Shown piece after piece: positions 20,092 through 61,654 of a stretch of DNA of 62,666 nt. The first letter of the stretch is position 1, and each line of letters starts with the position of its first letter. Position numbers and translations under genes: made by a program. The notes beneath the pieces were generated by a model. It was given only the letters and a program-made list of their open reading frames with translations, was not told where the DNA came from and searched no databases. Origin of the DNA: Cyanophora paradoxa CCMP329 (Eukaryota > Plantae > Glaucophyta); NCBI GenBank assembly GCA_004431415.1, contig QPMI01000329.1, positions 1 to 62,666 of the forward strand, read 5' to 3'.

Positions 20092-20226
20092 TGTTAGCCC
20101 CCCCCCCCTATGACTCTTGTCCCTTGGGTCTTGCCCCTTCAGAGAGTGTCTTGTCTTTTCGTCTTGTTTTTGTCAAAAAGAACTATTTCAACTCTTCAAA
20201 TTACCACTGTAAGCTCTTCGCTTACA
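20092..20226 (+). repeat. 5' LTR (about 135 bp, TG...CA) of Ty3/Gypsy family 1, followed by PBS TGGTAGCA (20229-20236)
   Basis: Runs tgttagccc...cttaca. The same sequence follows a polypurine tract at 57460. The PBS resembles the complement of an initiator tRNA-Met 3' end. Confidence 0.85.
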
Positions 20227-20385
20227 AGTGGTAGCATCGGATCTCACGATCCTTTGCTTGATTCTCCAAAAATTTCACATTACAACCTCAGGCAAACCCT
20301 TGTGCGATTACAGCGCATTAATTTGGACACCGTGGAACAAGATATAGAAGTAGAAGTTGAAGACGATCAGGAAGACGAAGACGAA

Positions 20386-23333
20386 ATGGCTGCTGAAAAA
20401 TCAAAGTTTTTGCTGTCGCTGCGATCAATTCCTGCTGAGGAACGCTTTTCTGGAAGTGGAACTTCTTATGATTACAGTGATTTTCTTATGAAAGTAAAAA
20501 TGGACTTCGAATTCATGAATCTCCAGTTCACAGAGCGGGAAAAAGTGCAGATAATCACATACCACACTTCTGGAATGGCCAATAAACACGTTATGCAAAA
20601 GTTATCGGGTGCTCCCGTTGTCGTGCCCAACGGGTTTTCTGCTGAACTTTTAGAGGAGCTACGAGTGAAATTTGACCTATCGGAACATGAGTATAAGCGT
20701 CGGCTGGACGCACTCAGCCCAAAGCTTCCAAATTCGAACGAAATTTGTCTTAAAACATTTTTGAATGAGGCTATTCCATTGGTTGAGAAGGCTTTCCCAA
20801 ATGCGTCTGATAAGGCTAAGGTAACAGAATTGGCAGCACGCTTATCCAAAATTCCCGGCTTTGAAGAAAAAATTCAAATGCTTATTGTTACTGGCGGAAT
20901 TCAAACGCTTTCGGATTTCGCTAAGGCCCGTGAGAAATTGGATCACGTTGCTGAGATTGAAGACAAAGCAACGAAGCTCAAGGCTCCAGTACCTGAAATT
21001 GGTGTGGCAAAAAGTAGTTCTACTTCTTCGACATCATCTGCGATTGCCACCTCTGGAACTGCTAATGTTGGTATTAAAATTGATGGATTGCAAAATTCTG
21101 GAAATATGGACAAGAAATGTCCTGTTTGCAACATTCCCTATGCCCTTGGCCCGCATCCGTATCCAAATGTTTGCAGAGCCCGCCAAGAGGGCTATGGTAG
21201 CGGGAGTGTGCCGCAACGGACGCCCCCTTCTGGATTTCGTGGTGGGATGCAACAGCTCCCTGGAAATTATCGACCCCCTATTCAGTACCAAGGTGCTCCC
21301 CGACGTGTGAATGTTGTGGAGTCTGAAGCAGATAATGTACCTGATCTGAACAATTCAACTACTGATGTGTACACCAAACACACAAAGCGGATTTATGTGG
21401 CCCAGGAAATGCTAAGATTAAAGCCAGAAATAGAAATAAAGGCAGGGACTGTGCCGCTGGTGGTTCAAGGGGTACCAACACGTGCACTGTTGGATACTGG
21501 AGCCGATGTGTCGTTAACTAGCACTAAACTGATTAAAAGGGCGCAAATGCCGCCTAATATCAGGAAACCTTCAGTGCCTTTGAAGGGTTTCACTCAGAAC
21601 ATTGTTCAGCCATTAGGTCAAGCAAATGTCACAGTAGAACTTGGCTCTTTGAAAACCAGTGAACCAGTGATTGTAATGGATAAGTTATCTCATGAAGTTA
21701 TCCTTGGTCGTGATTATATGATTAAGAATAACGTGGATATTTCGCATTCAAAAGGTGTAGTCTATTCAGACAACAAACCAGATTTATTTGTTCCGATTGC
21801 ATTGGAAAAGAACAAACACAAGCTTATGGTTGCAAAAACAGTTGACATTCCAGCACAAAGTGGTGTTCGAGTGACTCTTCAAGGAAATGTTGACAACAAA
21901 GAAGGGCTTCTTCATTTTGAGCAAACTGAAGTTCTCCCAGGGATCTTTGCAATTTCTGGACTCCAGTCAATGGAGAACAATACCACTTGGGCAGTAATGT
22001 ATAATACAAATGATGAGTTGTTTCGACTGGAATGTGGGAAAGAAATTGGAGAGTGGCATGATTTGGACAGTTATAATATTGAACAGGTAGAAATTTGCAA
22101 TGTAAATTTGCATCAGCATTCAAATCCAGTCAAATCTACAATTGACGAATCGTTTAATAAATCTTTCTTTGATCAGATCAAGAGGGAAATTGACTATGGC
22201 GAAACTGATGCATCACCTGAACAACTTGCCTGCATGGAAGAAATGCTTCGTAATAATTGTGATTTATTTGTTGAAAAATTCAAGTTTGACCCAGCGCACT
22301 GCTTGCCTGGTGAACACAGCATTGAAACTGGTAATGCAGCTCCAATAAATGCTCGACCTATGCAGCATTCACCAAAGGACCGTGAGCTGTTCAAGAAAAC
22401 TATTGACGACTTGCTTCAGCGAAACATTGCAGAACCAAGCGAGTCTCCATGGGCAGCTCCCGCATTCTTTGTTAGCAAACATGGAACTGATGAAAAGAGG
22501 CTTGTTACAGACTATAGACGGCTCAATGCTGTCACTAAGCGGGATGTTTATCCACTGCCTAAAATACAGGATATGCTGGATGCGCTGCAAGGCAATGAAT
22601 ATTTTTCTAACATGGACTTTGCTTCCGGTTTCTGGCAAGTTAAAATGAGGACTGAGGACAAAGAAAAGACGGCCTTCAAAACTCCATTTGGCCTTTTTCA
22701 AATGAATGTTATGGCAATGGGGTTGACAAATGCCCCACCTACATTCCAACGTATTATGGAGCAAATGTTCAATGATTACTTGTGGATTTCTGTCCTGATT
22801 TTTGTAGATGATCTAATCACTTTTTCGAAGTCATTTGATGATCATTGCAGGGACCTGCAGCTAGTGTTCAACAGGCTCCGCAAAAACAATGCGAAATTGA
22901 AGCCTTCAAAGTGTCATTTCTTCAAGAAACAACTGAAATTTCTTGGACACATAGTTTGCAAGGAGGGAAGGAGACCAGATCCAGAGAAACTAAAGGCCAT
23001 CAAGGAGTTTCCAGTTCCAACAAATGCAACTGCTCTTCGTTCCTTCCTTGGCACTTGCAATTATTACCGGGACAATGTACAAGACTTTTCTAAAACAACA
23101 TCGATTTTGTATGACCTAACTCAAAAGGACGTCATATGGAGGTGGACTCTCGACCATCAATCAGCATTTAATAAAATTAAAGATGATTTGCTTCAGGAAA
23201 CCATGCTTCACTATCCCGACTTCAACAAACCATTTGTTATCGAAACTGATGCAAGTGATAAGGGCATTGGTGGAATTCTCTCGCAAGAACAACATGGAGT
23301 GCTAAAGCCCGTTTATTTTTACAGTAGGAAATG
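20386..23333 (+). CDS. Ty3/Gypsy family 1 single-frame Gag-protease-RT-RNase H polyprotein, truncated in RNase H by satellite
   Basis: Knuckle-like CPVC-x8-H-x5-C; LLDTGAD; SPWAAPAFFV, RLVTDYRRLN, YPLP, DFASGFWQ, KTAF, MGLTNAP, FVDD; FVIETDAS. The frame is also open upstream into the LTR. Confidence 0.93.
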
Positions 23334-26300
23334 GATTCGCCAGAGCACTCTGGCAGGTTTGCATGAAAGGGAGGGGTGTTAGTTATCTAGTTGCGGCGTT
23401 GGGTTCAGGGCTGCCCCCATCGCCCCCCGAAATTTCACAGGGGTCCCCACCCACACGAAACAGCAGGCAGGGAGCGCTGGGAAATCTCACAGGGGTCCCC
23501 ACCCACACGAAACAGCAGGAAGGGAGCGCTGGGATTCGCCAGAGCACTCTGGCAGGTTTGCATGATAGGGAGGGGTGTTAGTTGTCTAGTTTTGAGGTTG
23601 GGTTCGGGGCTGCCCCCCTCGCCCCCCGAAATATCAGAGGGGTCCCCACCCACACGAAACAGCAGGCAGGGAGCGCTGGGATTCACCAGAGCACTCTGGC
23701 AGGTTTGCATGATAAGGAGGGGTGTTAGTTTTCTAGTTTCGAGGTTGGGTTCGGGGCTGCCCCCATCGCCCCCCAAAATCTCACAGTGCTCCCCACCCAC
23801 AGGAAACAGCAGGCAGGGAGCGCTGGGATTCGCCAGAGCACTCTGGCAGGTTTGCATGATAGGGAGGGGTGTTAGTTTTCTAGTTTCGAGGTTGGGTTTG
23901 GGGCTGCCCCGATCGCCTGCTGTTTCGTGTGGGTGGGGACCCCTGTGAAATTTCGGGGGGCGGTCGGGGCCACCCCGAACCCAACCCCGAAACTAGAAAA
24001 CTAACACCCCTCCCTATCATGCAAACCTGCCAGAGTGCTCTGGCGGATCCCAGCGCTCCCTTCCTGCTGTTTCGTGTGGGTGGGGACCCCTGTGAGATTT
24101 CGGGGGGCAATCGGGGCAGCCCCGCACCCAACCTTGAAACTAGAAAACTAACACCCCTCCCTATCATGCAAACCTGCCAGAGTGCTCTGGCGAATCCCAG
24201 CGCTCCGTTCCTGCTGTTTCGTGTGGGTGGGGACCTCACCCACAGGAAACAGCAGGCAGGGAGTGCTGGGATTCGCCAGAGCACTCTGGCAGGTTTGCAT
24301 GATAGGGAGGGGTGTTAGGTTTCTAGTTTCGAGGTTGGGTTCGGGGCTGCCCCAATCGCCCCCCGAAATCTCACAGGGGTCCCCACCCACAGGAAACAGC
24401 AGGAAGGGAGTGCTGGGATTCGCCAGAGCACTCTGGCAGGTCTGCATGATAGGGAGGGGTGTAAGGTTTCTAGTTTCGAGGTTGGGTTCGGGGCTGCCCC
24501 CATTGCCCCCCCAAATCTCACAGGGGTCCCCACCCACATGAAACAGCAGGCAGGGAGCGCTGGGATTCGCCAGAGCACTCTGGCAGGTTTGCATGATAGG
24601 GAGGGGTGTTAGGTTTCTAGTTTCGAGGTGGGGTTCGGGGCTGCCCCAATCGCCCCCCGAAATCTCACAGGGGTCCCCACCCACAGGAAACAGCAGGAAG
24701 GGAGCGCTGGGATTCGCCAGAGCACTCTGGCAGGTCTGCATGATAGGGAGGGGTGTTAGTTTTCTAGTTTCGAGGTTGGGTTCGGGGCTGCCCCCATTGC
24801 CCCCCGAAATCACACAGGGGTCCCCACCCACAAGAAACAGCAGGCAGGGAGTGTTGGGATTCGCCAGAGCACTCTGGCAGGTTTGCATGATAGGGAGGGG
24901 TGTAAGTTTTCTAGTTTCGAGGTTGGGTTTGGGGCTGCCCCCATTGCCCCCCAAAATCTGACAGGGGTCCCCACCCACACGAAACAGCAGGAAGGGAGCG
25001 CTGGGATTCGCCAGAGCACTCTGGCAGGTTTGCATGATAGGAAAGGGTGTTGGTTTTCCAGTTTCGAGGTTGGGTGCAGGGCTGCCACCATTGCCCCCCA
25101 AAATCTGACAGGGGTCCCCACCCACAGGAAACAGCAGGCAGGGAGCGCTGGGATTCGCCAGAGCACTCTGGCAAATTTGCATGATAGGGAGGGGTGTTAG
25201 GTTTCTAGTTTCGAGGTTGGGTTCGGGGCTGCCCCAATCGCCCCCCAAAATCTCACAGGGGTCCCCACCCACAGGAAACAGCAGGCAGGGAGCGCTGGGA
25301 TTCGCCAGAGCACTCTGGCAGGTCTGCATGATAGGGAGGGGTGTTAGGTTTCTAGTTTCGAGGTTGGGTTCGTGGCTGCCCCAATCGCCCCCGAAATCTC
25401 ACAGGGGTCCCCACCCACAGGAAACAGCAGGAAGGGAGCCCTGGGATTCGCCAGAGCACTCTGGCAGGTTTGCATGATAGGGAGGGGTGTTAGTTTTCTA
25501 GTTTCGAGGTTGGGTTCGGGGCTGCCCCCATTGCCCCCCCAAATCTCACAGGGGTCCCCACCCACATGAAACAGCAGGCAGGGAGCGCTGGGATTCGCCA
25601 GAGCACTCTGGCAGGTCTGCATGATAGGGAGGGGTGTTAGGTTTCTAGTTTCGAGGTTGGGTTCGGGGCTGCCCCCATTGCCCCCCCAAATCTCACAGGG
25701 GTCCCCACCCACAGGAAACAGCAGGAAGGGAGTGCTGGGATTCGCCAGAGCACTCTGGCAGGTCTGCATGATAGGGAGGGGTGTAAGTTTCTAGTTTCGA
25801 GGTTGGGTTCGGGGCTGCCCCCATTGCCCCCCAAATCTCACAGGGGTCCCCACCCACATGAAACAGCAGGCAGGGAGCGCTGGGATTCGCCAGAGCACTC
25901 TGGCAGGTTTGCATGATAGGGAGGGGTGTTAGTTTCTAGTTTCGAGGTGGGTTCGGGGCTGCCCCAATCGCCCCCGAAATCTCACAGGGGTCCCCACCCA
26001 CAGAAACAGCAGGAAGGGAGCGCTGGGATTCGCCAGAGCACTCTGGCAGGTCTGCATGATAGGGAGGGGTGTTAGTTTTCTAGTTTCGAGGTTGGGTTCG
26101 GGGCTGCCCCATTGCCCCCGAAATCCACAGGGGTCCCCACCCACAGAAACAGCAGGCAGGGAGTGTGGGATTCGCCAGAGCACTCTGGCAGGTTTGCATG
26201 ATAGGGAGGGGTGTAGTTTTCTAGTTTCGAGGTTGGGTTGGGGCTGCCCCATTGCCCCCCAAATCTACAGGGGTCCCCACCCACACGAAACAGCAGGAGG

Positions 26301-27408
26301 GAGCGCTGGGATTCGCCAGAGCACTCTGGCAGGTTTGCATGATAGGAAGGGTGTTGTTTTCAGTTTCGAGGTTGGGTGCGGGCTGCCCCATTGCCCCCCA
26401 AAATCTGACAGGGGTCCCCACCCACAGGAAACAGCAGGCAGGGAGCGCTGGGATTCGCCAGAGCACTCTGGCAAATTTGCATGATAGGGAGGGGTGTTAG
26501 TTTCTAGTTTCGAGGTTGGGTTCGGGGCTGCCCCAATCGCCCCCCAAAATCTCACAGGGGTCCCCACCCACAGGAAACAGCAGGCAGGGAGCGCTGGGAT
26601 TCGCCAGAGCACTCTGGCAGGTTTGCATGATAGGGAGGGGTGTTAGTTTCTAGTTTCGAGGTTGGGTTCGGGGCTGCCCCAATCGCCCCCGAAATCTCAC
26701 AGGGGTCCCCACCCACAGGAAACAGCAGGAAGGGAGCCCTGGGATTCGCCAGAGCACTCTGGCAGGTTTGCATGATAGGGAGGGGTTTTAGTTTTCTAGT
26801 TTCGAGGTTGGGTTCGGGGCTGCCCCCATTGCCCCCCCAAATCTCACAGGGGTCCCCACCCACATGAAACAGCAGGCAGGGAACGCTGGGATTCGCCAGA
26901 GCACTCTGGCAGGTCTGCATGATAGGGAGGGGTGTTAGTTTTCTAGTTTCGAGGTTGGATCCAGGGCTGCCCCCATTGCCCCCCAAAATCTGACAGGGGT
27001 CCCCACCCACACGAAACAGCAGGCAGGGAGCGCTGGGATTCGCCAGAGCACTCTGGCAGGTTTGCATGATAGGAAAGGGGGTTGGTTTTCCAGTTTCGAG
27101 GTTGGGTGCGGGGCTGCCCCCGTTGCCCCCCAAAATCTCACAGGGGTCCCCACCCACACGAAACAGCAGGCAGGGAGTGCTGGGATTTGCCAGAGCACTC
27201 TGGCAAATTTGCATGATAGGGAGGGGTGTGAGTTTTCTAGTTTCAAGGTGGGGTTCGGGGCTGCCCCAATCGCCCCCCGAAATCTCACAGGGGTCCCCAC
27301 CCACACGAAACAGCAGGCGGGTAGCGCTGGGATTCGCCAGAGCACTCTGGCAGGTTTGCATGATAGGAAAGGGTGTTGGTTTTCCAGTTTCGAGGTTGGG
27401 TGCGGGGC
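23332..27408. repeat. 147-bp satellite: minus 23332-23914, plus 23915-24235, minus 24236-27408, with a roughly 9-mer higher-order repeat
   Basis: Orientation switches are visible. Diagnostic variants recur at about 1.3 kb spacing (gaagggagtgctggg near 24403 and 25725). Confidence 0.93.
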
Positions 27409-27493
27409 TGGGCGATAAAGCCATTCTAAACGTCATTTAAACTGCGATTACCAAACGCAGTCTTATTTTTCTCTTGTTTTTAGTAGTGAAAAC

Positions 27494-27975
27494 ATGACTG
27501 AACTAGAAGAGTTCAATGCTGGCGAGATGATTTCGAACAGCTTCAGAGCCATTTTTATAGGACGCTCAAACACTGGTAAATCTGAAGCTTGTCTATACTG
27601 GATTAAGCAGCTCCACGATGCAAAAAAAATCGATGCTGTTGTTGTGTTTACCGGGACGAAATTCAATAATTTCTGGGCACCTGTAACTCCCATGGTAATT
27701 GATGGATGGGATGCAGCTTTTGTATCGCAGTTGCTAGATGCAAGGCAGCAAAAGATTGCAGCTGGGGGAAAGGTTAACGAACTTTTAATTGTCCTGGATG
27801 ATTTAATCGACAATGAGCATATTGACCTCCATAAAAGTCCGCAGGTTGCATCCCTCTACACCAGAGGTCGCCATTCCCATATTAGCATAATTTGCATCAC
27901 TCAAAAGATGCGAAAGCTTTCAAGTACAATCCGAGTGAACACTGAATACACATGTATTCTGAATGCCAGTAATCG
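27494..27975 (+). pseudogene. 3'-truncated A32-type packaging ATPase from a second, divergent Polinton-like virus
   Basis: GRSNTGKS, LIVLDDLI, YTRGRHSHISIICITQ. Homologous to but clearly different from 18340-19097. Joined directly to a retrotransposon piece. Confidence 0.88.
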
Positions 27976-29250
27976 CTTGACCCTAAGGGTCGGGGCGGTT
28001 CGCAGCCCCGCCCGGCGGGAAAAGCCTAACCCAGCCTGTTGTTGCCCGCCAGGCTGGGGCGGCCAAGAAACCAGCCATTTTCGGCGCAGCGAATGGACTG
28101 CGATCGTTGTTGCCTTTGATTACTCTCAATGAGTTCTTGAAGCGGCAGTCGTTGTCAGTCGCTCGCGCTTTCCCTTTCCCTTCCTTGGATGCTCCTCAAT
28201 CTTCTTCTCCTATTTCTTCTTCTGGTCCCGATGTTACCCTTCAAGAGAATGATCCCATTATCCATGAGGTTGCTTCAGTGGAAATTCGCCCAGACATTCG
28301 TCCTGGTTTTGGTCAAGCGCATTCGCGTGGAATTGAAAATGTTTTGGATGACTCGAAAAGTGCTAGTAGAGTAGTGGTAGTTAGTGGAAATCGTGGAAAA
28401 TTGGAACAGAAGTCCCTTTCGAATTTCTTTTCTGATGAGCTGCGATGGAAACGAGATGCCCCTGCTAAAAAGCATTTTATATCATCTGCAAACAATTCGA
28501 AGCCGGTTTCCCTGAAGTTGTCTTTTGATGATAATGGCCGAGCCTCAATTCAAATTTGTTCTCTGGACTCCCAGAGCCCTCCTGCTGAGCCTGCATTCGC
28601 AGGGCCGCGTCCCTTCATGACCTCAGCTCCGGGGAGGTCAACTCTGGACGTTGTCATTCAGGGCAAACATCACAAATTCCTTCTCGACAGCGGGGCAGAT
28701 GTCTCTTTCATTCTTTCTTCTACAATCTCTTCTCTTGGACTTCAAAATAAGGTGTTTAGAACTATTCACACTCCTTCTGTCAAGCTCCCGAATTCTGCAT
28801 TGGTGGCTGTTCCCGGTGAGGTTCATGTGGCTGCTACTATTGGGCCCCTCACCCGGAGTTTTCCTTTTCTTGTGGTTGATTTCCCAGGATACGCATTCGA
28901 TGGCATCTTAGGCCAAGATTTCTTTTCTGATAATGGAGTCACCTATTGCAATAAGGACGCTGACAACCGATTTGTGGTCTTCGCCAAGCACCCAGACAAG
29001 CCAGTTAAGTGTGGAATTCTCTCTTTCTTACCTGGCACCTCTACGCAGCCGAGTTCTCTGTCGCCGGAGACACCGGAATCTGACCCCTCGGACGACTCCA
29101 GCACTCGCAGAGTGTCCAAGGAGCATGGTCATATTCTGGAGGTTGCAAGGGAGGTTAAAATTGAACCTGGTGTGCAACGGAAGGTTGAACTGCAAGTCGG
29201 AGGCAACCGCTATTTGCCGGATTGTGAAGGTTTTCTTGTCAACTTCTACA
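27975..29250 (+). mobile_element. Ty3/Gypsy family 2 fragment: gag end, recoding signal and aspartic protease
   Basis: FLLDSGADVS ... DGILGQDF. Homologous to 45284-46625 (minus strand). Confidence 0.85.
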
Positions 29251-33095: not shown

Positions 33096-33468
33096 AAAGT
33101 TGACCTGAAACTCTGCAGCCACCACCAATAAATGCTCCTCCTGATCTCACAGTTACAGCAGCAGTGTTTTTATCATAATCAAGGGCTTTCAGATCAACAC
33201 TGTAAGCATCAGGACCTCCATTTGTAGGCTGAAAGAAGTTAGCATTTGTGACAAGCAGTCGAGTTGTTTTAACCACACCAGAATTCTTATCAGCTCTCAG
33301 CTCTTTAACTCGAATAATCGAATTTTTATCAAAGGAGTTACCATTGGAGTTGGGTCTCTCTGTGGATTCTAAACCACGAACCTCATCATTTACTTCATGC
33401 TGGCGAAAATGCATTGCAGGGGATCCAAGGGAATATATAGGCAGTTGAACTCGATTATATTCACCCAT
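33096..33468 (-). pseudogene. 3'-truncated hypothetical gene of a virus-like cluster
   Basis: Intronless ORF in an AT-rich segment; runs into the satellite. Confidence 0.55.
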
Positions 33469-33507
33469 TGCTTCTTTTACTAAGAAGGAAAGAAAAATAA
33501 ACTACCA

Positions 33508-33813: not shown

Positions 33814-33816
33814 TTA

Positions 33817-47712: not shown

Positions 47713-47808
47713 CAAGTAAAAGCAACGAGGAGACATTGCGGGTGCATCGCTGCTCATCTTGTATTTATTTCCTGCCGATTATGTGAAAAGATCGTGAATT
47801 GGAGAAGC

Positions 47809-48738
47809 ATGCACATCTCTCGCTTCTTGACAGGAAGCTTGACGACTCTTCTTCTTATCCTTGCGGCTGCAAAGATGAACACGCTTTCCAGCACATGCAC
47901 TTGCGTTGCTGATTCAGAAGTTTCCATGCACTCGCTTAGCCGGATGACCAAGTTCGCCGTAGGTAGCCAAGCATGGAATACAGATTATAAAATGGATCAC
48001 GTTGCACTAATTGTTCCATACAGAGACCGCGCAAAACATTTGACAGAATTTTTGATGGAAACAAGGAGTTTTCTGCGGAATCAAAATGTCAGGTTCCAAA
48101 CTTTCATTATTGAACAAAATAATGTGTACAAATTCAATCGCGGAGCACTTTTCAACATCGCAGCAATACTTCTTTCCAAATCTTCGTTCAATTTTTTCAT
48201 TTTCCACGATGTTGACCTTATCCCTGTAAGCCCAGAGCTTGTTTATTCTTTTTCTAAAGACAAACCTTATCACATTAGCCCACCAGGAATTCATTGGTCT
48301 GCAGATTATGACACTTTTTTCGGAGGGGCGGCTATTTTCTTCAAGCCTCTGTTTTTCAAGATTCATGGTTTTAATCCCGAAATCTGGGGATGGGGACAAG
48401 AGGACAATAATCTACAAGCACGATGTGCAGCACATGGGTTGTGGCCACCTTTATATCCACCAAAGCGATCACGGTCATATATCAGGCATTTATCCTTGAA
48501 CCACACTGATAGAGTTGGAAGGGATCCAGCACTCAACTCTAAGTTAGAGCAGAATCTGATAACTGGCATCTCTGAGACGGCTTTTTGGGTGCAAGAAATC
48601 GAATCGAACAACATTTCGATTCATGTACATGTTCATATTTTCTGTAATGTAACATCCACCCCTTTTTGTGTGACTGGAGTTCAGCAGAAAGCTTTTCTTC
48701 CAGGCATTGGCTATGTAGATGAAATACAGAGTATATGA
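47809..48738 (+). CDS. Glycosyltransferase family 7 (beta-1,4-galactosyltransferase-like), intronless, 309 aa
   Basis: IVPYRDR..HL, IIEQ, FNRGALFN, FHDVDL, FFGG, WGWGQED; N-terminal hydrophobic anchor. The track's longer N-terminus is read-through from satellite. Confidence 0.9.
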   Translation: MHISRFLTGSLTTLLLILAAAKMNTLSSTCTCVADSEVSMHSLSRMTKFAVGSQAWNTDYKMDHVALIVPYRDRAKHLTEFLMETRSFLRNQNVRFQTFIIEQNNVYKFNRGALFNIAAILLSKSSFNFFIFHDVDLIPVSPELVYSFSKDKPYHISPPGIHWSADYDTFFGGAAIFFKPLFFKIHGFNPEIWGWGQEDNNLQARCAAHGLWPPLYPPKRSRSYIRHLSLNHTDRVGRDPALNSKLEQNLITGISETAFWVQEIESNNISIHVHVHIFCNVTSTPFCVTGVQQKAFLPGIGYVDEIQSI

Positions 48739-49284
48739 GCAATTTGGAATTCGGCATGTATGACCCAGATCGACGGGCACACGCACCCGTGGCCTGGTCC
48801 CTCACAAATGGTCAGGCAGGGCGGTGCTGGCGTTCCCCAGAGCATCCCCAGAGCAGAGGGGTGGGGGGAGGAGGGGGGGCCTTCCCCGCGTGAGTGGATG
48901 TCTTATATATATATATATATATATTGGCCCCCCCCCATAATTTTTCTCCCAGGTGCCCGCCCGAAATGGGGTCCAGGAATCGAACCCGGGTTTTTTTGAT
49001 ACTGCAAGAAGAAGAGTATGTATAAGACACGCCCAAGCCGGTTGTGCGGTACTGCAGACGGCGACCCCCCACACCCATTGGACGCCCTTTACCCGAATTT
49101 GCCCCTCACAGGTCTCGCACCCCGGTGAGATTTCGGGGGTGGGGACCCCAGTGAGATTTCAGGGGGGCGATGGGGGCAGCCCTGAACCCAACCTCGAAAC
49201 TAGAAAACTAACACCCCTCCCTATCATGCAAACCTGCCAGAGTGCTCTGGCGAATCCCAACGCTCCCTGCCTGCTGTTTTGTGT

Positions 49285-49610
49285 CGATCTCTTGGAGACC
49301 AATGCATTGGTCTCGACTTGATTGGTGGATGATCCCCTGTATCAATGCTGTGTTCACCTGGCAAACATTTGTCTTCACGGAAAATAAACTTGTTCTCAAA
49401 TACATCACAGTTGTTTTTGAAGAGCTCTTTCATTTTTGATTTTTGCTCTGGTGTTGAATCTGCAAAACCAAAATCCAACAAAGACTCTATGGCATCAAAG
49501 TACGACTTGTCAAAAGAGGGGTCAATGGTTGAGGTCACATCATCTTTCTCTTTAAGAAGACTGAGTGAATAAATCTCGTAATTAGATTCTGTTATCCAGG
49601 ACGCCACCAT
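49285..49610 (-). mobile_element. Family 1-related Ty3 fragment (pre-RT linker)
   Basis: STIDPSFDKSYFD...NNCDVF...CLPGEHSIDTG aligns with the protein encoded at about 22135-22383. Confidence 0.85.
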
Positions 49611-52600
49611 GCATGATGGGGAGGGGTGTGAGTTTTCTAGTTTCGGGGTTGGGTTCGGGGTGGCTCCGACCGCCCCCCGAAATTTCACAGGGGTCCCCAC
49701 CCACACCAAACAGCAGGCAGGGGGCGCTGGGATTCGCCAGAGCACTCTGGCAGGTTTGCATGATAGGGAGGGGTGTTAGTTTTCTAGTTTCGAGGTTGGG
49801 TTTGGGGCTGCCCCAATCGCCCCCCGAAATCTCACAGGGGTCCCCACCCACACGAAACAGAAGGAAGGGAGCGCTGGGATCCGCCAGAGCACTCTGGCAG
49901 GTTTGCATGATAGGGAGGGGTGTTAGTTTTCTAGTTTCGGGGTTGGGTTCGGGGTGGCTCCGACCGCCCCCCGAAATTTCACAGGGGTCCCCACCCACAC
50001 CAAACAGCAGGCAGCATGATAGGGAGGGGTGTTGGTTTTCTAGTTTCGGGGTTGGGTTCGGGGCTGCCCCCATTGCCCCCCCAAATCTCACAGGGGTCCC
50101 CACCCACATGAAACAGCAGGCAGGGAACGCTGGGATTCGCCAGAGCACTCTGGCAGGTCTGCATGATAGGGAGGGGTGTAAGGTTTCTAGTTTCGAGGTG
50201 GGGTTTGGGGCTGCCCCAATCGCCCCCCGACATCTCACAGGGGTCCCCACCCACAGGAAACAGCAGGAAGGGAGCGCTGGGATTCGCCAGAGCACTCTGG
50301 CAGGTCTGAATGATAGGGAGGGGTGTAAGTTTTCTAGTTTCGGGGTTGGGTTCGGGGTGGCTCCGACCGCCCCCCGAAATCTCACAGGGGTCCCCACCCA
50401 CACGAAACAGCAGGCAGGGAGCGCTGGGATTCGCCAGAGCACTCTGGCAGGGTTGCATGATGGGGAGGGGTGTGAGTTTTCTAGTTTCGGGGTTGGGTTC
50501 GGGGTGGCTCCGACCGCCCCCCGAAATTTCACAGAGGTCCCCACCCACACCAAACAGCAGGCAGGGGGCGCTGGGATTCGCCAGAGCACTCTGGCAGGTT
50601 TGCATGATAGGGAGGGGTGTTCGTTTTCTAGTTTCGAGGTTGGGTTCGGGGCTGCCCCCATAGCCCCCTGAAATCTCACAGGGGTCCCCACCCACACGGA
50701 ACAGCAGGCAGGGAGCGCTGGGATTCGCCAGAGCACTCTGGCAGGTTTGTATGATAGGGAGGGGTTTTTTTTCCTAGTTTCGAGGTTGGGTTTGGGGCTG
50801 CCCCAATCGCCCCCCCAAATCTCACAGGGGTCCCCACCCACACGAAACAGCAGGCAGGGAGCGCTGGGATTCGCCAGAGCACTCTGGCAGGTTTGCATGA
50901 TAGATTTCAGGGGGCGATTGGGGCAGCCCCAAACCCAACCTCGAAACTAGAAAACTAACACCCCTCCCTATCATGCAAACCTGCCAGAGTGCTCTGGCGA
51001 ATCCCAGCGCCCCCTGCCTGCTGTTTCGTGTGGGTGGGGACCCCTGTGAAATTTCGGGGGGTGGTCGGAGCCTCCCCGAACCCAACCCCGAAACTAGAAA
51101 ACTCACACCCCTCCCCATCATGCAAACCTGCCAGAGTGCTCTGGCGAATCCCAGCGCTCCCTGCCTGCTGTTTCGTGTGGGTGGGGACCCCTGTGAGATT
51201 TCGGGGGGCGATGGGGGCAGCCCCAAACCCAACCTCGAAACTAGAAAACTAACACCCCTCCCTATCATGCAAACCTGCCAGAGTGCTCTGGCGAATCCCA
51301 GCGCTCCCCACCTGCTGTTTCGTGTGGGTGAGGACCCCTGTGAGATTTCGGGGGGCGATGGGGGTAGCCCTGAACCCAACGCCCAAACTAGAAAACTAAC
51401 ACCCCTCCTTTTCATGCAAACCTGCCAGAGTGCTCTGGCGGATCCCAGCACTCCCACTCTGGCAGGTTTGCATGATGGGGAGGGGTGTGAGTTTTCTAGT
51501 TTCGGGGTTGGGTTCGGGGTGGCTCCGACCGCCCCCGAAATTTCACAGGGGTCCCCACCCACACGAAACAGCAGGCAGGGAGCGCTGGGATTCGCCAGAG
51601 CACTCTGGCAGGTTTGCATGATAGGGAGGGGTGTTCGTTTTCTAGTTTCGAGGTTGGGTTCGGGGCTGCCCCCATAGCCCCCTGAAATCTCACAGGGGTC
51701 CCCACCCACACGGAACAGCAGGCAGGGAGCGCTGGGATTCGCCAGAGCACTCTGGCAGGTTTGTATGATAGGGAGGGTTTTTTTTCCTAGTTTCGAGGTT
51801 GGGTTTGGGGCTGCCCAAATCGCCCCCCCAAATCTCACAGGGGTCCCCACCCACACGAAACAGCAGGCAGGGAGCGCTGGGATTCGCCAGAGCACTCTGG
51901 CAGGTTTGCATGATAGATTTCAGGGGGTGATTGGGGCAGCCCCAAACCCAACCTCGAAACTAGAAAACTAACACCCCTCCCTATCATGCAAACCTGCCAG
52001 AGTGCTCTGGCGAATCCCAGCGCCCCCTGCCTGCTGTTTGGTGTGGGTGGGGACCCCTGTGAAATTTCGGGGGGTGGTTGGAGCCTCCCCGAACCCAACC
52101 CCGAAACTAGAAAACTCACACCCCTCCCCATCATGCAAACCTGCCAGAGTGCTCTGGCGAATCCCAGCGCTCCCTGCCTGCTGTTTCGTGTGGGTGGGGA
52201 CCCCTGTGAGATTTCAGGGGGCGATCGGTGCAGCCCCAAACCCAACCTCGAAACTAGAAAACTAACACCCCTCCCTATCATGCAAACCTGCCAGAGTGCT
52301 CTGGCGAATCCCAGCGCTCCCCACCTGCTGTTTCAAGTGGGTGGGGACCCCTGTGAGATTTCGGGGGGCGATGGGGGTAGCCCTGAACCCAACGCCGAAA
52401 CTAGAAAACTAACACCCCTCCTTTTCATGCAAACCTGCCAGAGTGCTCTGGCGGATCCCAGCACTCCCACTCTGGCAGGTTTGCATGATGGGGAGGGGTG
52501 TGAGTTTTCTAGTTTCGGGGTTGGGTTCGGGGTGGCTCCGACCGCCCCCGAAATTTCACAGGGGTCCCCACCCACAACAAACAGCAGGCAGGGGGCGCTG

Positions 52601-55600
52601 GGATTCGCCAGAGCACTCTGGCAGGTTTGCATGATAGGGAGGGGTGTTCGTTTTCTAGTTTCGAGGTTGGGTTCGGGGCTGCCCCCATAGCCCCTGAAAT
52701 CTCACAGGGGTCCCCACCCACACGGAACAGCAGGCAGGGAGCGCTGGGATTCGCCAGAGCACTCTGGCAGGTTTGTATGATAGGGAGGGTTTTTTTTCCT
52801 AGTTTCGAGGTTGGGTTTGGGGCTGCCCAAATCGCCCCCCCAAATCTCACAGGGGTCCCCACCCACACGAAACAGCAGGCAGGGAGCGCTGGGATTCGCC
52901 AGAGCACTCTGGCAGGTTTGCATGATAGATTTCAGGGGGCGATTGGGGCAGCCCCAAACCCAACCTCGAAACTAGAAAACTAACACCCCTCCCTATCATG
53001 CAAACCTGCCAGAGTGCTCTGGCGAATCCCAGCGCCCCCTGCCTGCTGTTTGGTGTGGGTGGGGACCCCTGTGAAATTTCGGGGGGTGGTTGGAGCCTCC
53101 CCGAACCCAACCCCGAAACTAGAAAACTCACACCCCTCCCCATCATGCAAACCTGCCAGAGTGCTCTGGCGAATCCCAGCGCTCCCTGCCTGCTGTTTCG
53201 TGTGGGTGGGGACCCCTGTGAGATTTCAGGGGGCGATCGGTGCAGCCCCAAACCCAACCTTGAAACTAGAAAACTAACACCCCTCCCTATCATGCAAACC
53301 TGCCAGAGTGCTCTGGCGAATCCCAGCGCTCCCCACCTGCTGTTTCAAGTGGGTGGGGACCCCTGTGAGATTTCGGGGGGCGATGGGGGTAGCCCTGAAC
53401 CCAACGCCGAAACTAGAAAACTAACACCCCTCCCTTTCATGCAAACCTGCCAGAGTGCTCTGGCGGATCCCAGCACTCCCACTCTGGCAGGTTTGCATGA
53501 TGGGGAGGGGTGTGAGTTTTCTAGTTTCGGGGTTGGGTTCGGGGTGGCTCCGACCGCCCCCCGAAATTTCACAGGGGTCCCCACCCACACCAAACAGCAG
53601 GCAGGGGGCGCTGGGATTCGCCAGAGCACTCTGGCAGGTTTGCATGATAGGGAGGGGTGTTAGTTTTCTAGTTTCGAGGTTGGGTTTGGGGCTGCCCCAA
53701 TCGCCCCCTGAAATCTCACAGGGGTCCCCACCCACACGAAACAGCAGGCAGGGAGTGCTGGGATCCGCCAGAGCACTCTGGCAGGTTTGCATGATGGGGA
53801 GGGGTGTTAGTTTTCTAGTTTTGGCGTTGGGTTCAGGGCTACCCCCATCACCCCCCGAAATCTCACAGGGGTCCCCACCCACACGAAACAGCAGGCAGGG
53901 AGCGCTGGGATTCGCCAGAGCACTCTGGCAGGTTTGCATGATAGGGAGGGGTGTTCGTTTTCTAGTTTCGAGGTTGGGTTCGGGGCTGCCCCCATAGCCC
54001 CTGAAATCTCACAGGGGTCCCCACCCACACGGAACAGCAGGCAGGGAGCGCTGGGATTCGCCAGAGCACTCTGGCAGGTTTGTATGATAGGGAGGGTTTT
54101 TTTTCCTAGTTTCGAGGTTGGGTTCGGGGCTGCCCAATCGCCCCCCAAATCTCACAGGGTCCCCACCCACACGAAACAGCAGGCAGGGAGCGCTGGGATT
54201 CGCCAGAGCACTCTGGCAGGTTTGCATGATAGATTTCAGGGGGCGATTGGGGCAGCCCCAAACCCAACCTCGAAACTAGAAAACTAACACCCCTCCCTAT
54301 CATGCAAACCTGCCAGAGTGCTCTGGCGAATCCCAGCGCCCCCTGCCTGCTGTTTGGTGTGGGTGGGGACCCCTGTGAAATTTCGGGGGGTGGTCGGAGC
54401 CTCCCCGAACCCAACCCCGAAACTAGAAAACTCACACCCCTCCCTATCATGCAAACCTGCCAGAGTGCTCTGGCGAATCCCAGCGCTCCCTGCCTGCTGT
54501 TTCGTGTGGGTGGGGACCCCTGTGAGATTTCAGGGGGCGATTGGTGCAGCCCCAAACCCAACCTCGAATCTAGAAAACTAACACCCCTCCCTATCATGCA
54601 AACCTGCCAGAGTGCTCTGGCAAATCCCAGCGCTCCCCGCCTGCTGTTTCGTGTGGGTGGGGACCCCTGTGAGATTTCGGGGGGCGATGGGGGTAGCCCT
54701 GAACCCAACGCCGAAACTAGAAAACTAACACCCCTCCTTTTCATGCAAACCTGCCAGAGTGCTCTGGCGGATCCCAGCACTCCCACTCTGGCAGGTTTGC
54801 ATGATGGGGAGGGGTGTGAGTTTTCTAGTTTCGGGGTTGGGTTCGGGGTGGCTCCGACCGCCCCCCAAAATTTCACAGGGGTCCCCACCCACAACAAACA
54901 GCAGGCAGGGGGCGCTGGGATTCGCCAGAGCACTCTGGCAGGTTTGCATGATAGGGAGGGGTGTTCGTTTTCTAGTTTCGAGGTTGGGTTCGGGGCTGCC
55001 CCCATAGCCCCCTGAAATCTCACAGGGGTCCCCACCCACACGGAACAGCAGGCAGGGAGCGCTGGGATTCGCCAGAGCACTCTGGCAGGTTTGTATGATA
55101 GGGAGGGTTTTTTTTCCTAGTTTCGAGGTTGGGTTTGGGGCTGCCCAAATCGCCCCCCCAAATCTCACAGGGGTCCCCACCCACACGAAACAGCAGGCAG
55201 GGAGCGCTGGGATTCGCCAGAGCACTCTGGCAGGTTTGCATGATAGATTTCAGGGGGCGATTGGGGCAGCCCCAAACCCAACCTCGAAACTAGAAAACTA
55301 ACACCCCTCCCTATCATGCAAACCTGCCAGAGTGCTCTGGCGAATCCCAGCGCCCCCTGCCTGCTGTTTGGTGTGGGTGGGACCCCTGTGAAATTTCGGG
55401 GGTGGTTGGAGCCTCCCGAACCCAACCCGAAACTAGAAAACTCACACCCCTCCCCATCATGCAAACCTGCCAGAGTGCTCTGGCGAATCCCAGCGCTCCC
55501 TGCCTGCTGTTTCGTGTGGGTGGGGACCCCTGTGAGATTTCAGGGGCGATCGGTGCAGCCCCAAACCCAACCTTGAAACTAGAAAACTAACACCCCTCCC

Positions 55601-56198
55601 TATCATGCAAACCTGCCAGAGTGCTCTGGCGAATCCCAGCGCTCCCCACCTGCTGTTTCAAGTGGGTGGGGACCCCTGTGAGATTTCGGGGGGCGATGGG
55701 GGTAGCCCTGAACCCAACGCCGAAACTAGAAAACTAACACCCCTCCCTTTCATGCAAACCTGCCAGAGTGCTCTGGCGGATCCCAGCACTCCCACTCTGG
55801 CAGGTTTGCATGATGGGGAGGGGTGTGAGTTTTCTAGTTTCGGGGTTGGGTTCGGGGTGGCTCCGACCGCCCCCCGAAATTTCACAGGGGTCCCCACCCA
55901 CACCAAACAGCAGGCAGGGGGCGCTGGGATTCGCCAGAGCACTCTGGCAGGTTTGCATGATAGGGAGGGGTGTTAGTTTTCTAGTTTCGAGGTTGGGTTT
56001 GGGGCTGCCCCAATCGCCCCCTGAAATCTCACAGGGGTCCCCACCCACACGAAACAGCAGGCAGGGAGTGCTGGGATCCGCCAGAGCACTCTGGCAGGTT
56101 TGCATGATGGGGAGGGGTGTTAGTTTTCTAGTTTTGGCGTTGGGTTCAGGGCTACCCCCATCGCCCCCCGAAATCTCACAGGGGTCCCCACCCACACA
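49611..56198. repeat. 147-bp satellite organised as a roughly 1013/1304-bp higher-order repeat, each unit containing two inversion junctions
   Basis: Junction catga-tagatttcaggggg at 50901, 51914, 52926, 54230, 55244. Junction gatcccagcactcccactctgg at 51441, 52454, 53466, 54770, 55779. Confidence 0.93.
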
Positions 56199-57448
56199 AC
56201 GCTCAGATAAGCACTTACGAAGCATAATTAACATATTAGAAGGACATCCAAGCAGCGATGAAGCAATCAACCGGAAGGCAAAACTTTTCCGGCTGAACAA
56301 GGATGGTATCCTGGTTTTTGCGGCATCCAACCTGAACCCACGAGTAGTTATTCCCTCTTCCATGTCATTGGATCTCATTCGAGACGCTCATGATAATCCC
56401 TTGTCTGGTCACTTCGGCGTTGACAAGGTGCTCGCGGCTTGGGCGTGTCTTATACATACTCTTCTTCTTTGACAAGGTGCTCGCGCAACTCCGCAAAAAT
56501 TACTTTTGGGAGAGCATGCAAGAAGATGTCAAAAAGTATATTACACAATGTCAGAAATGTCAGTTTCGGAAACCTTTAACTGGTCGTTCGCAAGCACCTC
56601 AGCTGACAGTTCCGGCATCAAGTCCCTTCGAAGTTGTTGAACTTGATTTTATCGGTCCTCTTCCGACTACATCTCGTGGAAATCGTTTTATCTGCACTGC
56701 AATCTGCGTTTACACAGGTTACGCTGAGGCCGAGGCGACTCCTTCCATGTCTGCTAAGTCCGCGTGCAACATGATCTACAATCACATTATATGTTGTCAT
56801 GGCTGTCCGTGGATGATCTATACGGACCAAGGCGGAGCATTTGCAAGCAAGGTGACGAAGCTTCTGTTGTCAAAACTCGGCATCAAGTCAGTTCTCAGCA
56901 CTGGTTATCGGCCTATGGCTACAGGGAAAATCGAACGGCTGAATCAGACGCTCAAGAACATCATCTACAATTATATTAACGAAGACCACGACAACTGGGA
57001 TAAATATTTGGCTCCGGCGTTGTTTGCAGTTCGGACGCACATAAACGCAACCACCGGAACATCGCCGTTCTTTTTGACGTACGGTCGTGACCCGGTGATG
57101 CCATACGACACCTATGTTCCAACTGCGGAATTGCGACCTCCCGATTACGTGACACAAATGATTTCCGATTTGAACGCTGCTATGGCGAAGGTCGATACAA
57201 TTAAACTCAAAAAGGATTCAAAAATTGCGGAGGCAGCGGCCAAAAACGACTGGACAGAATTTTGCATCGACGACATGGTCCTTCTACGCGACCCATCTTC
57301 ATCTGGTTTTCAGCCTCGATTTACAGGGCCTTACGCGGTGCTCAAGCGTACCTCGGCGGTCAACTACCTGCTCTGGGACCCGGAACGCCCAAAGTTTCCC
57401 TTCGTAGCGCACGTCGATCGAATGCGGCCCTACGTAGCTCAGATCTAG
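56199..57448 (+). pseudogene. Ty3/Gypsy family 1 integrase, 5'-truncated and disrupted by a 49-bp insertion plus duplication
   Basis: HDNPLSGHFG...CQKC, LDFIGP, TDQG, TGKIERLN, RFTGPY, HVDRMRPY; followed by PPT and LTR. Confidence 0.92.
56437..56468 (+). mobile_element. 32-bp insertion with a 17-bp target-site duplication
   Basis: ttgacaaggtgctcgcg (56420-56436 and 56469-56485) flanks gcttgggcgtgtcttatacatactcttcttct. The same sequence occurs inverted at 49007-49038. Confidence 0.85.
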
Positions 57449-57449
57449 C

Positions 57450-57530
57450 GGAGAGGGGGTGTTAGCCCCCCCCCCCTTATGACTCTTGTCCCTTGGGTCT
57501 TGCCCCTTCAGAGAGTGTCTTGTCTTTTCG
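57450..57530 (+). repeat. Polypurine tract (57450-57459) and truncated 3' LTR (57460-57530) of family 1
   Basis: ggagaggggg then tgttagccc...tgtcttttcg, matching 20092-20161. Confidence 0.9.
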
Positions 57531-58365: not shown

Positions 58366-59504
58366 GACACATCGGAAATGCGGCTTGTAGTTGATTATAG
58401 AAATTTGAATGCAGCAACCAAGAAAAATGTTTATCCATTGCCTAATATACAAGATATGCTGGATGCTTTGCAAGGAAGTCAATTCTTTTCAAACATGGAT
58501 CTTGCCACTGGATTTTGGCAGGTTAAGATGAAACAATCTGACCGTGAGAAAACAGCTTTTAAAACGCCTTTTGGCTTGTTTGAAATGAAGGTTATGCCCA
58601 TGGGACTTACAAATGCTCCTCCCACATTCCAGTCTATCATGGAAAATATGTTCAATGATTATCTTTGGATGTTTGTGCTCGTTTTCATTGATGATCTCAT
58701 CACATATTCCAAGACTTTTGAAGACCACTGCAGGGATTTGCAACTCACATTCAACAGACTCCGTGCTAACAATGCGAAGCTTAAGCCTAATAAATGCCAC
58801 TTCTTTAAAACAGAACTCAAATTTCTTGGACATATTGTAGATAGAAATGGAAGGCGTCCTGACCCAGCAAAACTAGATGCGATTGAAAAGGTCGCCATTC
58901 CTACGAATGCAACTGAACTACGATCGTTTTTAGGGTCGTGCAACTATTATAGGGACAATGTTGACAGATTTTCCATCATTACTTCTCGTTTATATGATTT
59001 GATACAGAAGGATGTGCCATTTCATTGGACAGACACGCACACTCATGATTTTACAACGCTTAAGAGTGAATTACTCAAAGCTGTGGTTCTTCACTATCCA
59101 GATTTTAACAAAAGTTTTGTAATTGAAACTGATGCCTGTGAATTAGGTGCTTCTGGAATTCTTTCACAAGAGCATGATGGAATTCTCAAACCTGTTTGTT
59201 TTTATAGTCGCAAATGGCGAGGTTCTGAACGCCAAATGCCTCCTTCCGAAGGTGAGTGTGCAGCTCTCGTCGATTGTCTTACTCAGTGGAGTCACTACCT
59301 TCTGGGAGCACCAAAATCTACTGTGTACACAGATTGTGAAGCCCTGGAATGGCTTCTCAACAGGAAACCTGGAAAAGGGAAGCTTGCACGTTGGGCTGCT
59401 CTGATTCAACAATATGATATTGAAATAAAGCACAGAAAAGGATCTTTGAACCGTGCTGATGGATTCTCAAGAGTACCTGTTGAACCAACATCCCACATCT
59501 ATGC
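58366..59504 (+). mobile_element. Family 1-related RT-RNase H fragment
   Basis: RLVVDYRNLN, DLATGFWQ, FIDD, IETDAC, YTDCEAL, RADGFSR. A diverged paralog of 22490-23333. Confidence 0.92.
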
Positions 59505-59650: not shown

Positions 59651-60538
59651 GATTGCAGCTGCTTGGCGATGCAATTGAACTTCGAGAGGCATCTTTTTTC
59701 GAGCGAACTGAACGTGTCTTCACCGCTGCTGTGGTGCATTTGTAGCCACTTCCTCCACGTTTGTCCCACTTGTGCTTTGTAGATGGACATTGGAGTCCAA
59801 GATGAACACAGCATCAATGGCCTTATTGAGCTGGTTTTTTGAACACGTCTCTGTATTCTATATGAAATCACTGACTCCTCTGTAGACAAAGACTTATGAT
59901 GTGATCGAATTGGTAGCAACTGAAAAGCGTTTTTTCTTTCGAGACCGTAGTACTGTGAGTCAAGGCAATCATGCTCTCACATTTTCTAATGGCCTGCTCA
60001 GATGATCAAGGTTTTGGGACTTCTACCATCTGGCATCTCCTGCTGCCCCACCCTGACGAAAGCCCTGTCGTTGCTCAAGCTCACATGGCCTTTTGGCAAT
60101 GGCTGTAGAAATCTATCTTCTCTTTCAACCCCTGATGAGGATGTACCCTGTATCTGATATGTATCTGACGGTGGTCTTATTGAGGACCTAGTTTGGTGCC
60201 TGTCGAGCCAGTTCACAGTCATACAATAGTTTACTAAAAACCGGCCTCTTCCTAATGCCGGCCTGGGGTATTCCCGATCGATATCCCGTTCACGTTTGTA
60301 AATCCTAATTGCAGTGATATAGAGAGAAAAGTTAGAGAGCTTTGCCATCAGCATCATCAGCACAGTCAATGAGCACCACAGGAGAACCTGAATCATCACT
60401 GAAAACCGGAAGGTCAGCAGGAGAGAAACGATGCAAACGGTTTAACTGAATATAATTTATAATAGCACTTTTTGACATTTGGCCACCTTTATCCAAAGTC
60501 CTACCTGAACCGAAAATCTACCCACTTTTGCCCACTTC
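59651..60538. other. Unassigned unique insert between satellite blocks
   Basis: Non-satellite; no motif recognised in any frame. Confidence 0.4.
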
Positions 60539-61490
60539 TGGGGACCCCTGTAAGATTTCGGGGGGCGATGGTGGCAGCCCCGAACCCAACCCCGAAACTA
60601 GAAAACTTACACCCCTCCCTATCATGCAAACCTGCCAGAGTGCTCTGGCAAATCCCAGCACTCCCTGCCTGCTGTTTCCTGTGGGTGGGGACCCCTGTGA
60701 GATTTCAGGGGGTGATGGGGGCAGCCCCGAACCCAACCCCGAAACTAGAAAACTAACACCCCTCCCTATCATGCAAATTTGCCAGGGTGCTCTGGCGAAT
60801 CCCAGCGCTCCCTGCCTGCTGTTTCGTGTGGGTGGGGACTGTGAGATTTCAGGGGGTGATGGGGGCAGCCCCGAACCCAACCTGGAAACTAGAAAACTTA
60901 CACCCCTCCCTATCATGCAAACCTGCCAGAGTGCTCTGGCAAATCCCAGCGCTCCCTGCCTGCTGTTTCGTGTGGGTGGGGACCCCTGTGAGATTTCGGG
61001 GGGTGATGGGGGCAGCCCTGTGAGATTTCAGGGGGCGGTCGGGGCAGCCCCGAACCCAACCTCGAAACTAGAAAACTCACACCCCTCCCTTTCATGCAAA
61101 CCTGCCAGAGTGCTCTGGCGAATCCCAGCGCTCCCCGCCTGCTGTTTCGTGTGGGTGGGGACCCCTGTGAGATTTCAGGGGGCCACCCACACGAAACAGC
61201 AGGAAGGGAGCCCTGGGATTCGCCCCAGCACTCTGGCAGGTTTGCATGATAGGGAGGGGTGTTAGTTTTCTAGGTTCGAGGTTGGGTTCGGGGCTGCCCC
61301 GATCGCCCCCCGAAATCTCACAGGGGTCCCCACCCACACGAAACAGCAGGCAGGGGGCGCTGGGATCCGCCAGAGCACTCTGGCAGGTTTGCATGATAGG
61401 GAGGGGTGTGAGTTTTCTAGTTTTGAGGTTGGGTTCGGGGCTGCCCCCATCGCCCCCCGAAATCTCACAGGGGTCCCCACCCACATGAAA
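60539..61490. repeat. 147-bp satellite, plus to about 61182 then minus
   Basis: Monomer match with a fold-back junction. Confidence 0.93.
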
Positions 61491-61654
61491 CGGCTTAGTC
61501 ATTTTCAGTAGCGCGTTCAGAGGGGCTGAATCGAACGGGGCGCGCCCACACCAGTGTAGCGCTAGGGGTGGAGCTCTTGTGAAGGGTGGGTGTAGACATG
61601 GTCCGGACCGGTACGCGCGAAAGGTCAATATTTATTGCGAGCCAGCTAGCTGCT

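Follow-up and report, generated by a model that had tools for sequence, protein, structure and literature searches.

Multi-fragment capture at breaks by non-homologous end joining (NHEJ) is established in yeast (PMC11372161). In satellite DNA, rearrangements bound to a motif are described in the nematode Meloidogyne (PMC3694981) and conserved inversion sites in the beetle Tribolium madens (PMC13081366). Here we describe a patchwork of satellite scraps and foreign fragments in the glaucophyte Cyanophora paradoxa CCMP329, at positions 20092–61630 (~42 kb) of contig QPMI01000329.1; the window is the whole stretch analysed, 62,666 nt long. The patchwork starts 250 bp after the end of a Polinton-like virus inserted in 147-bp satellite. 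Its inserts resemble the yeast events, in which retrotransposon and genomic fragments enter single double-strand breaks, in their unpaired termini, 2–4 pieces per insert, short microhomology and retrotransposon or repeat donors. They differ in that many events are stacked over 42 kb of a natural genome, with pieces of up to 3 kb and with joints that fall again and again at one phase of the monomer. As in Meloidogyne (PMC3694981) and Tribolium madens (PMC13081366), joints or inversions recur at a motif with a predicted non-B structure; both partners of a joint are satellite in those cases, whereas here the site also takes up foreign fragments and an entire Polinton-like virus. No comparable locus was found in the literature searched. 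What is new here is the clustering of joints at a monomer site shared with the target of the Polinton-like virus. We consider it moderately probable that the patchwork arose by repeated end-joining repair of breaks at a fragile satellite site, with capture of nearby repeat-rich DNA.

Satellite blocks and inserts were delimited with a path model of the 147-bp monomer on both strands, and eight repeated higher-order joints were dropped from the joint-cluster counts. Fourteen of 27 satellite-insert ends fall at monomer phases 56–70 (2.8 expected, p = 5e-5), and 26 of 44 satellite-satellite ends fall at phases 60–89 (9 expected, p = 5e-5). The cluster persists when one end per insert is counted (8/13, p = 0.002, and 7/13, p = 0.015). 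The 6-bp target duplication of the Polinton-like element corresponds to phase 60–65, inside this hotspot. The monomer is predicted to fold as single-stranded DNA far better than shuffled sequences (z = −4.35, 0/200); the hotspot lies in a multi-branched stem of the predicted fold, and a motif of four G runs covers phases 57–95. At 22 satellite-satellite joints the microhomology is 0–4 bases, with a mean of 1.55 versus 0.85 for re-paired ends (p = 0.004), the blunt or short-microhomology pattern of end joining. No insert carries both its termini, and other copies or other flanks were seen for the Ty3-B retrotransposon, for 38195–38345 and for 49284–49600; none were seen in the runs for the glycosyltransferase gene, the GC-rich gene or the long interspersed nuclear element (LINE) piece. 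Short microhomology, the absence of paired termini and donors elsewhere in the genome together support capture at breaks, as had been proposed in a preliminary description of this DNA.

Segmentation against the array's own monomer gave 13 non-satellite inserts of 140–6,604 bp within 20095–60538, interleaved with 43 blocks of the 147-bp satellite of 18–3,177 bp each (20 on the plus and 23 on the minus strand, with 25 orientation switches). An extra non-satellite piece of 156 bp (61495–61650) lies just before a 124-bp satellite. The preliminary description had counted about a dozen inserts alternating with satellite blocks, several of them multi-piece chimeras, and both points stand, the latter for 27411–29248, 33096–35596, 40918–47521 and 47690–49118. 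Satellite makes up 47% of the patchwork (19,576 of ~41,540 bp), which sits between a clean 147-bp array on the left and the 124-bp satellite on the right. The features, with reverse transcriptase abbreviated as RT and long terminal repeat as LTR, are as follows.

1–8229, plus: clean 147-bp satellite array, 56.6 copies by Tandem Repeats Finder, 98.9% identity to its own majority monomer
8230–19844: Polinton-like virus with both ends intact, 309-bp perfect terminal inverted repeat and 6-bp target duplication, inserted at monomer phase 60–65
20092–23332, plus: 5′ part of Ty3-A, with a complete short 5′ LTR and gag-protease-RT, cut inside RNase H (Pfam)
23333–27410: satellite blocks in the orientations minus, minus, plus, minus (monomer segmentation)
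27411–27977, plus: A32 ATPase of a different Polinton-like virus (Pfam)
27411–29248, plus: insert in which a Ty3 gag-end/protease piece (after 27977) is fused to the A32 ATPase piece
33096–35596, minus: virus-like gene cluster of 38% GC with an S74-chaperone fibre gene, plus an unassigned 136-bp piece
36047–36512: unassigned 466-bp piece
36513–36830, minus: diverged satellite variant, 71% identity (monomer segmentation)
38195–38345: 151-bp piece of 80% GC, inserted cleanly at phase 68–69 with a 2-bp duplication
38650–40431, plus: part of a GC-rich gene, flanked by satellite arms in inverted orientation; its short introns were recognised by eye
40432–40836: second satellite variant, 82% identity (monomer segmentation)
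40918–47521: multi-piece insert with a GC-rich exon, a LINE-like piece, an unassigned piece, Ty3-B and further pieces
~41330–41600: LINE-like piece within this insert
41850–45135, plus: Ty3-B RT-integrase-3′ LTR within this insert
45136–45283: 148-bp piece after Ty3-B within this insert
45284–47081, minus: Ty3 gag-protease within this insert
Right end of 40918–47521: Ty3 integrase piece (plus), then a 131-bp piece
47809–48738, plus: intact intronless glycosyltransferase-7 (beta-1,4-galactosyltransferase-like) open reading frame (ORF) of 309 aa (Pfam; PDB E 3e-29)
49285–49609, minus: Ty3 piece that, judged by its translation, lies between protease and RT
50902–56197: higher-order repeat of ~1,013 bp, five copies of one inverted satellite joint
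56198–57526, plus: 3′ part of Ty3-A, with integrase, purine tract and the first 67 bp of the 3′ LTR (Pfam)
58367–59504, plus: Ty3-C RT-RNase H piece, flanked by a 12-bp satellite duplication (Pfam)
59653–60538: unassigned 886-bp piece
61651–62666: second satellite of 124-bp unit, its first 166 bp (61651–61816) inverted (tandem-repeat search and self-comparison)

The satellite blocks in the patchwork are 92–98% identical to the majority monomer, except for the two variants (71% and 82%). Because of this lower identity, they are older than the clean array or come from elsewhere. The Polinton-like element sits where the array changes from 99% to 95% identity. The 124-bp satellite likewise opens with an inverted piece at its edge (61651–61816). 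In the higher-order repeat, the plus blocks differ by 0–11 substitutions over 546–551 bp, which fits amplification of the 1-kb inverted unit to five copies within the genome. This unit of ~1,013 bp is a new higher-order satellite unit that arose from an inverted joint and was then copied to five. No Rfam family and no tRNA was found within the window, and an exact protein look-up matched 0 of 10 proteins.

The orientation of blocks and cargo bears on how they came together. The preliminary description had stressed that the flanking satellite is often inverted, so that a transcript could fold back. Inverted flanks occur around 7 of 13 inserts, as many as chance would give, and pairing would join the satellite arms, not the cargo. 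Cargo does occur in both orientations, as was noted at the time, with 8 pieces on the plus strand (11,423 bp) and 4 on the minus strand (4,625 bp), without departure from chance. The seven inverted arm pairs around inserts are 80–93% alike, against a background of 93.2 ± 1.8%. Since none of them exceeds this background, the arms are different monomers joined rather than fold-back copies, and sister-end fold-back was rejected as the source of the inverted flanks. Arm likeness above background occurs only at joints 32805 and 50901 and at the repeats of the latter. The random orientation, together with inverted arms no more alike than unrelated blocks, suggests that the satellite blocks were captured in the same way as the cargo.

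Combining these results, breaks would recur at one structure-prone site of the 147-bp monomer, where the G-rich fold-back stem may cause them. End joining would repair the breaks, drawing in loose pieces of nearby repeat-rich DNA. The satellite blocks would themselves be captured fragments and not a scaffold. One inverted joint was later amplified five-fold. RNA from the locus would be driven by promoters that arrived with the cargo, those of the glycosyltransferase gene and an antisense promoter of Ty3-B, and no dedicated silencing unit would be involved.

Amplification chimeras resemble short inverted pieces joined end to end. The patchwork shares this likeness, and the preliminary description had offered amplification or assembly chimerism as an alternative. 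A run search matched 24 public sequencing runs, 20 of which contain part of 40918–49609, with 17 studies represented and shares of up to 0.68. Seven runs (four DNA and three probable RNA) were compared with the region 38150–49609, which is 28% of the patchwork; the contig results rest on the best 32 of ~21,500 and the best 32 of ~4,350 contig pieces. The lowest depth classes in the four DNA runs are 67–75, 111–116, 38–44 and 38–44; contigs in these classes are read as single copy, though depth is no copy number. Several chimeric joints are unchanged in contigs from four studies. Joint 41850, recognised because other Ty3-B copies run on differently there, is bridged by at least 31 bases with no differences in three of the four DNA runs (26 bases in the fourth) and also in all three probable RNA runs. 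Joint 48801, between the glycosyltransferase flank and a satellite-variant piece, is bridged in 4/4 DNA runs. In DNA run X2, a contig of the lowest depth class (38622–40453, no differences) passes from satellite through the GC-rich gene into satellite; it crosses joints 38649 and 40432 by only 28 and 22 bases, below our bar of 31, and no listed contig spans the compared stretches. One run may be the assembly's source, but not all four, and as many as 11 substitutions separate copies of the higher-order repeat. Joints were thus not missing from independent libraries within the 28% compared, and their unchanged presence in contigs of four studies makes amplification chimerism unlikely for them. 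As an account of the patchwork, whole-genome amplification chimeras or misassembly of satellite-rich reads are very unlikely. Joints absent from the window were also seen in the DNA runs, from 42272 to 49252 (Ty3 to satellite, 2/4) and from 44461 to 46649 (Ty3 to Ty3, 4/4). Contigs with these joints belong to the lowest depth class, so the genome likely contains other patchworks of this kind.

By length, the cargo is 58% Ty3, 13% virus-like, 2% LINE-like and 27% other, computed over 21,983 non-satellite bp with some piece boundaries set by eye. The statement in the preliminary description that most identifiable cargo is parasitic agrees with the 71% that is Ty3 or virus-like; it overlooked the host-like genes in the ~27% that is not recognisably parasitic. 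Protease, RT, RNase H and integrase pieces of Ty3 are present (Pfam). They belong to at least three lineages, the RT regions being 72%, 42% and 44% identical, in line with the several variants first reported. In an alignment of 71 columns, the LTR of the Ty3-A 5′ part (20092) and 57460–57530 agree at 70; this piece and the one at 56198 may be two halves of one broken element. At 56435–56469 the Ty3-A integrase is interrupted by 35 inserted bp that carry a CTT-repeat tail and come with a 17-bp duplication; the insertion resembles the 3′ terminus of a LINE or short interspersed nuclear element. Its reverse complement is found at 49006–49040 (region 49006–49050) and belongs to a high-copy element, as seen from loose contig ends. 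The insert at 27411–29248 matches 45657–46620 at 71–89% in DNA, and a near-identical copy of the Ty3 piece at 49285–49609 runs on elsewhere into different sequence. Ty3-B is 3–13 times deeper than the lowest depth class in the DNA runs and carries substitutions, and is therefore a resident multi-copy family; the closest matches to its protein in a homologue search are only ~30% identical.

Most inserts had been described as cut mid-gene without their own termini or target duplications. This holds in that none has both ends, but three Ty3 pieces retain a single LTR end (20092, ~45024–45135 and 57460–57526), and 2 of the 13 inserts have a flanking duplication (2 bp and 12 bp). Of the LINE assignment, one RT piece persists weakly (E 0.25), with 5/5 matches to LINE-1 ORF2 RT. 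A second LINE piece at 45136–45283 was not supported, so that 148 of the 419 bp assigned to LINE lack support.

Two virus-like pieces named in the preliminary description were confirmed. The A32 ATPase piece (27411–27977) has 29–34% identity to the one encoded by the resident Polinton-like element and so comes from a different virus, and the fibre gene in 33096–35596 matches S74 in Pfam (E 4e-17) and tail fibre in PHROG (E 1e-27). Homologues of the fibre gene align to its S74 end only, and a search of viral contigs gave no donor virus for either piece. Endogenous Polinton-like viruses of protists encode phage-like fibre proteins with an endosialidase chaperone domain (PMC12220804), which supports a Polinton-like origin for fibre genes of the S74 type. 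The locus resembles those viruses in its endosialidase-chaperone fibre protein and in nesting with retrotransposons, but what is present here amounts to isolated genes or a cluster of 2.4 kb, all lacking termini.

The resident Polinton-like element is 11.6 kb long, with a helicase domain (Pfam) and an A32 ATPase split over two frames. We take the ends of 8230–19844 to be a Polinton terminal structure. The protein from 17063–18286 has a predicted double jelly-roll capsid fold (pLDDT 64; best match PBCV-1 capsid, E 8e-16). This capsid protein has only four distant relatives (25–27% identity), and no relatives of its gene were found in metagenome contigs. A 1,368-aa protein combines polymerase-B-like motifs (by eye) with a C-terminal superfamily-1 helicase domain, and a further match to an rve-like integrase is weak. 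Intron-like signals are depleted on both strands of the element (6 versus 17–19 in shuffles).

The remaining cargo includes host-like DNA. The glycosyltransferase-7 ORF lies on one contig at the lowest depth class in 4/4 DNA runs and is covered in 3/3 probable RNA runs; this gene, of 43% GC, is apparently single copy and apparently transcribed. A homologue search with its protein gave no homologue above 38% identity, and the gene may be host or viral in origin. Pieces of a GC-rich gene total ~2.1 kb at 62–69% GC, with short intron-like stretches of 46–77 nt. The fragment at 38650–40431 has no Pfam family, and neither has the piece at 59653–60538 in its nine open frames. The sequence of 38195–38345 has other flanks elsewhere, as judged from loose contig ends at 38193 and 38346 in run X2. 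An SF3A3 reading of 36047–36512 was discarded, the match being weak, below the cut-off and unsupported by a PDB search.

Six of the matched runs are taken to be RNA, although none is recorded as such, and three of them (X15, X17 and X18) were among the runs compared. Their RNA nature is supported by minus-strand GT-AG joints, 7 of the 15 listed, with 7 in X17, 6 in X18, 3 in X15 and none in DNA run X2. Among the joints listed, those antisense to Ty3-B pol mark introns of 51–108 nt. In X17 and X18, antisense RNA of the Ty3-B family (41850–44640) reaches very high depth; it is spliced at several short GT-AG introns and uses alternative splice sites. Since the spliced antisense contigs of greatest depth do not match this copy exactly, most of them probably stem from other Ty3-B copies. 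Branch-site motifs are not enriched in the Ty3-B antisense strand (5 versus 4.9 in shuffles), and removing the five listed antisense introns leaves no stop-free stretch longer than 163 aa. The introns look like cryptic introns. By itself, this antisense RNA is a candidate for triggering silencing or the control of copy number.

Probable RNA contigs are seen throughout the central 8 kb of the patchwork, and some of them match the locus itself. Contigs without differences cover 41087/41090–41885 in X17 and X18 (depth ~420) and 41391–41885 in X15; the contig at 41087–41885 crosses the GC-rich exon, the LINE piece and the Ty3-B joint. Another contig without differences in X15 (46762–47199) crosses the gag/integrase joint. 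In X17 and X18, contigs cover the glycosyltransferase gene on to 49035, with a depth of 156–344 over 48445–49035. Read-through across inserts, as had been anticipated, is thus supported for some joints in three probable RNA runs. The RNA contigs of two studies end within three bases of each other (41087–41090), whereas DNA contigs continue among the ends listed, a weak hint that this is a transcript end. X17 and X18 gave no cover over 38150–40823 (satellite blocks and the GC-rich gene), nor over the Ty3-B bin 44644–45025 at 97% likeness; neither was used as evidence.

These transcripts also bear on a possible role of the locus as a small-RNA memory, in which a captured patchwork would be kept and transcribed as a precursor, similar to those of siRNAs or piRNAs, against Ty3 and Polinton-like viruses. 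The piRNA pathways of insects draw on read-through precursors and on chimeric antisense transcripts (10.1101/2022.08.22.504762, PMC13226689). The patchwork shares with mosquito piRNA clusters with endogenous viral elements dense transposon and virus fragments (here 58% Ty3 and 13% virus-like) and RNA across joints near a gene; it differs in that satellite scraps are 47% of its length. The probable RNA contigs crossing several joints within 41087–49035, and the antisense RNA with GT-AG introns from the Ty3-B family, are consistent with such a role. However, the deepest spliced antisense contigs probably stem mostly from other copies, the Ty3 pieces compared belong to resident multi-copy families, neither flank inversion nor cargo orientation departs from chance, and in a fold-back the satellite arms would pair with each other while the cargo would form the loop. 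In addition, there is no fixed unit size (140–6,604 bp), other satellite variants were captured as well as host-like DNA, and in the ~27% of cargo that is unassigned or host-like an intact gene would be a self target. We consider a memory function unlikely.

CRISPR-like arrays have constant repeat and spacer lengths and one orientation, and their inserts enter at one set nucleotide, duplicating the repeat. Here, blocks of 18–3,177 bp and inserts of 140–6,604 bp alternate with 25 orientation switches, the joints cluster within 15–18 bases without sharing a single base position, and flanking duplication occurs in 2 of 13 inserts. The proposed analogy to a repeat-plus-spacer immune record therefore fails on size, orientation and duplication. 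A looser version, in which the 147-bp satellite has a built-in capture site, shared with the Polinton-like virus, where breaks take up pieces of invading viruses and retrotransposons, and in which read-through from captured promoters yields antisense RNA and silencing as an acquired immune record of a microbial eukaryote, is in our view decidedly improbable. Should no small RNAs map to it, the locus would be an ordinary scar of repair, though a clearly marked one.

Complex DNA between two satellites is also found in Drosophila centromere islands, which are 43–69 kb long, one of them between two different satellites (PMC6516634). The patchwork could likewise be an island carrying or bordering centromeric histone, its jumble a by-product of break-prone chromatin. 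This would be compatible with capture at breaks as to origin and differ as to function. The likeness to the islands lies in a size of tens of kilobases, richness in retroelements, flanking satellites and some transcription. Here, ~42 kb of complex DNA lies between the 147-bp and 124-bp satellites, and the depth of the 147-bp satellite exceeds the lowest depth class by a factor of thousands. However, no retroelement family dominates, unlike G2/Jockey-3 in Drosophila, a transcribed protein-coding gene is present, and Ty3, Polinton-like virus and host-like DNA are interleaved with satellite scraps in two orientations. A centromeric role is accordingly a doubtful proposition, which we would give little weight.

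Several observations weigh against end-joining capture at a fragile satellite site as we propose it. The window widths in the cluster tests were picked after seeing the data (3–4 widths). Cutting by an integrase or endonuclease, or nucleosome phasing on the 147-bp unit, fits the hotspot equally; the sizes of nine single-piece inserts show no significant nucleosome-ladder periodicity (best period 146.75, p = 0.10). With 71% of it Ty3 or virus-like, the cargo may be enriched for parasites. Locus-specific RNA at depths of ~420 and 156–344 exceeds what inert debris needs, and an intact, apparently single-copy, transcribed gene lies inside the patchwork.

Our analysis of the patchwork shows the decay of a satellite edge in which one site of the monomer takes about half of the insert joints. 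An intact Polinton-like virus has integrated at the same hotspot, linking the structure of the satellite to both virus integration and fragment capture.

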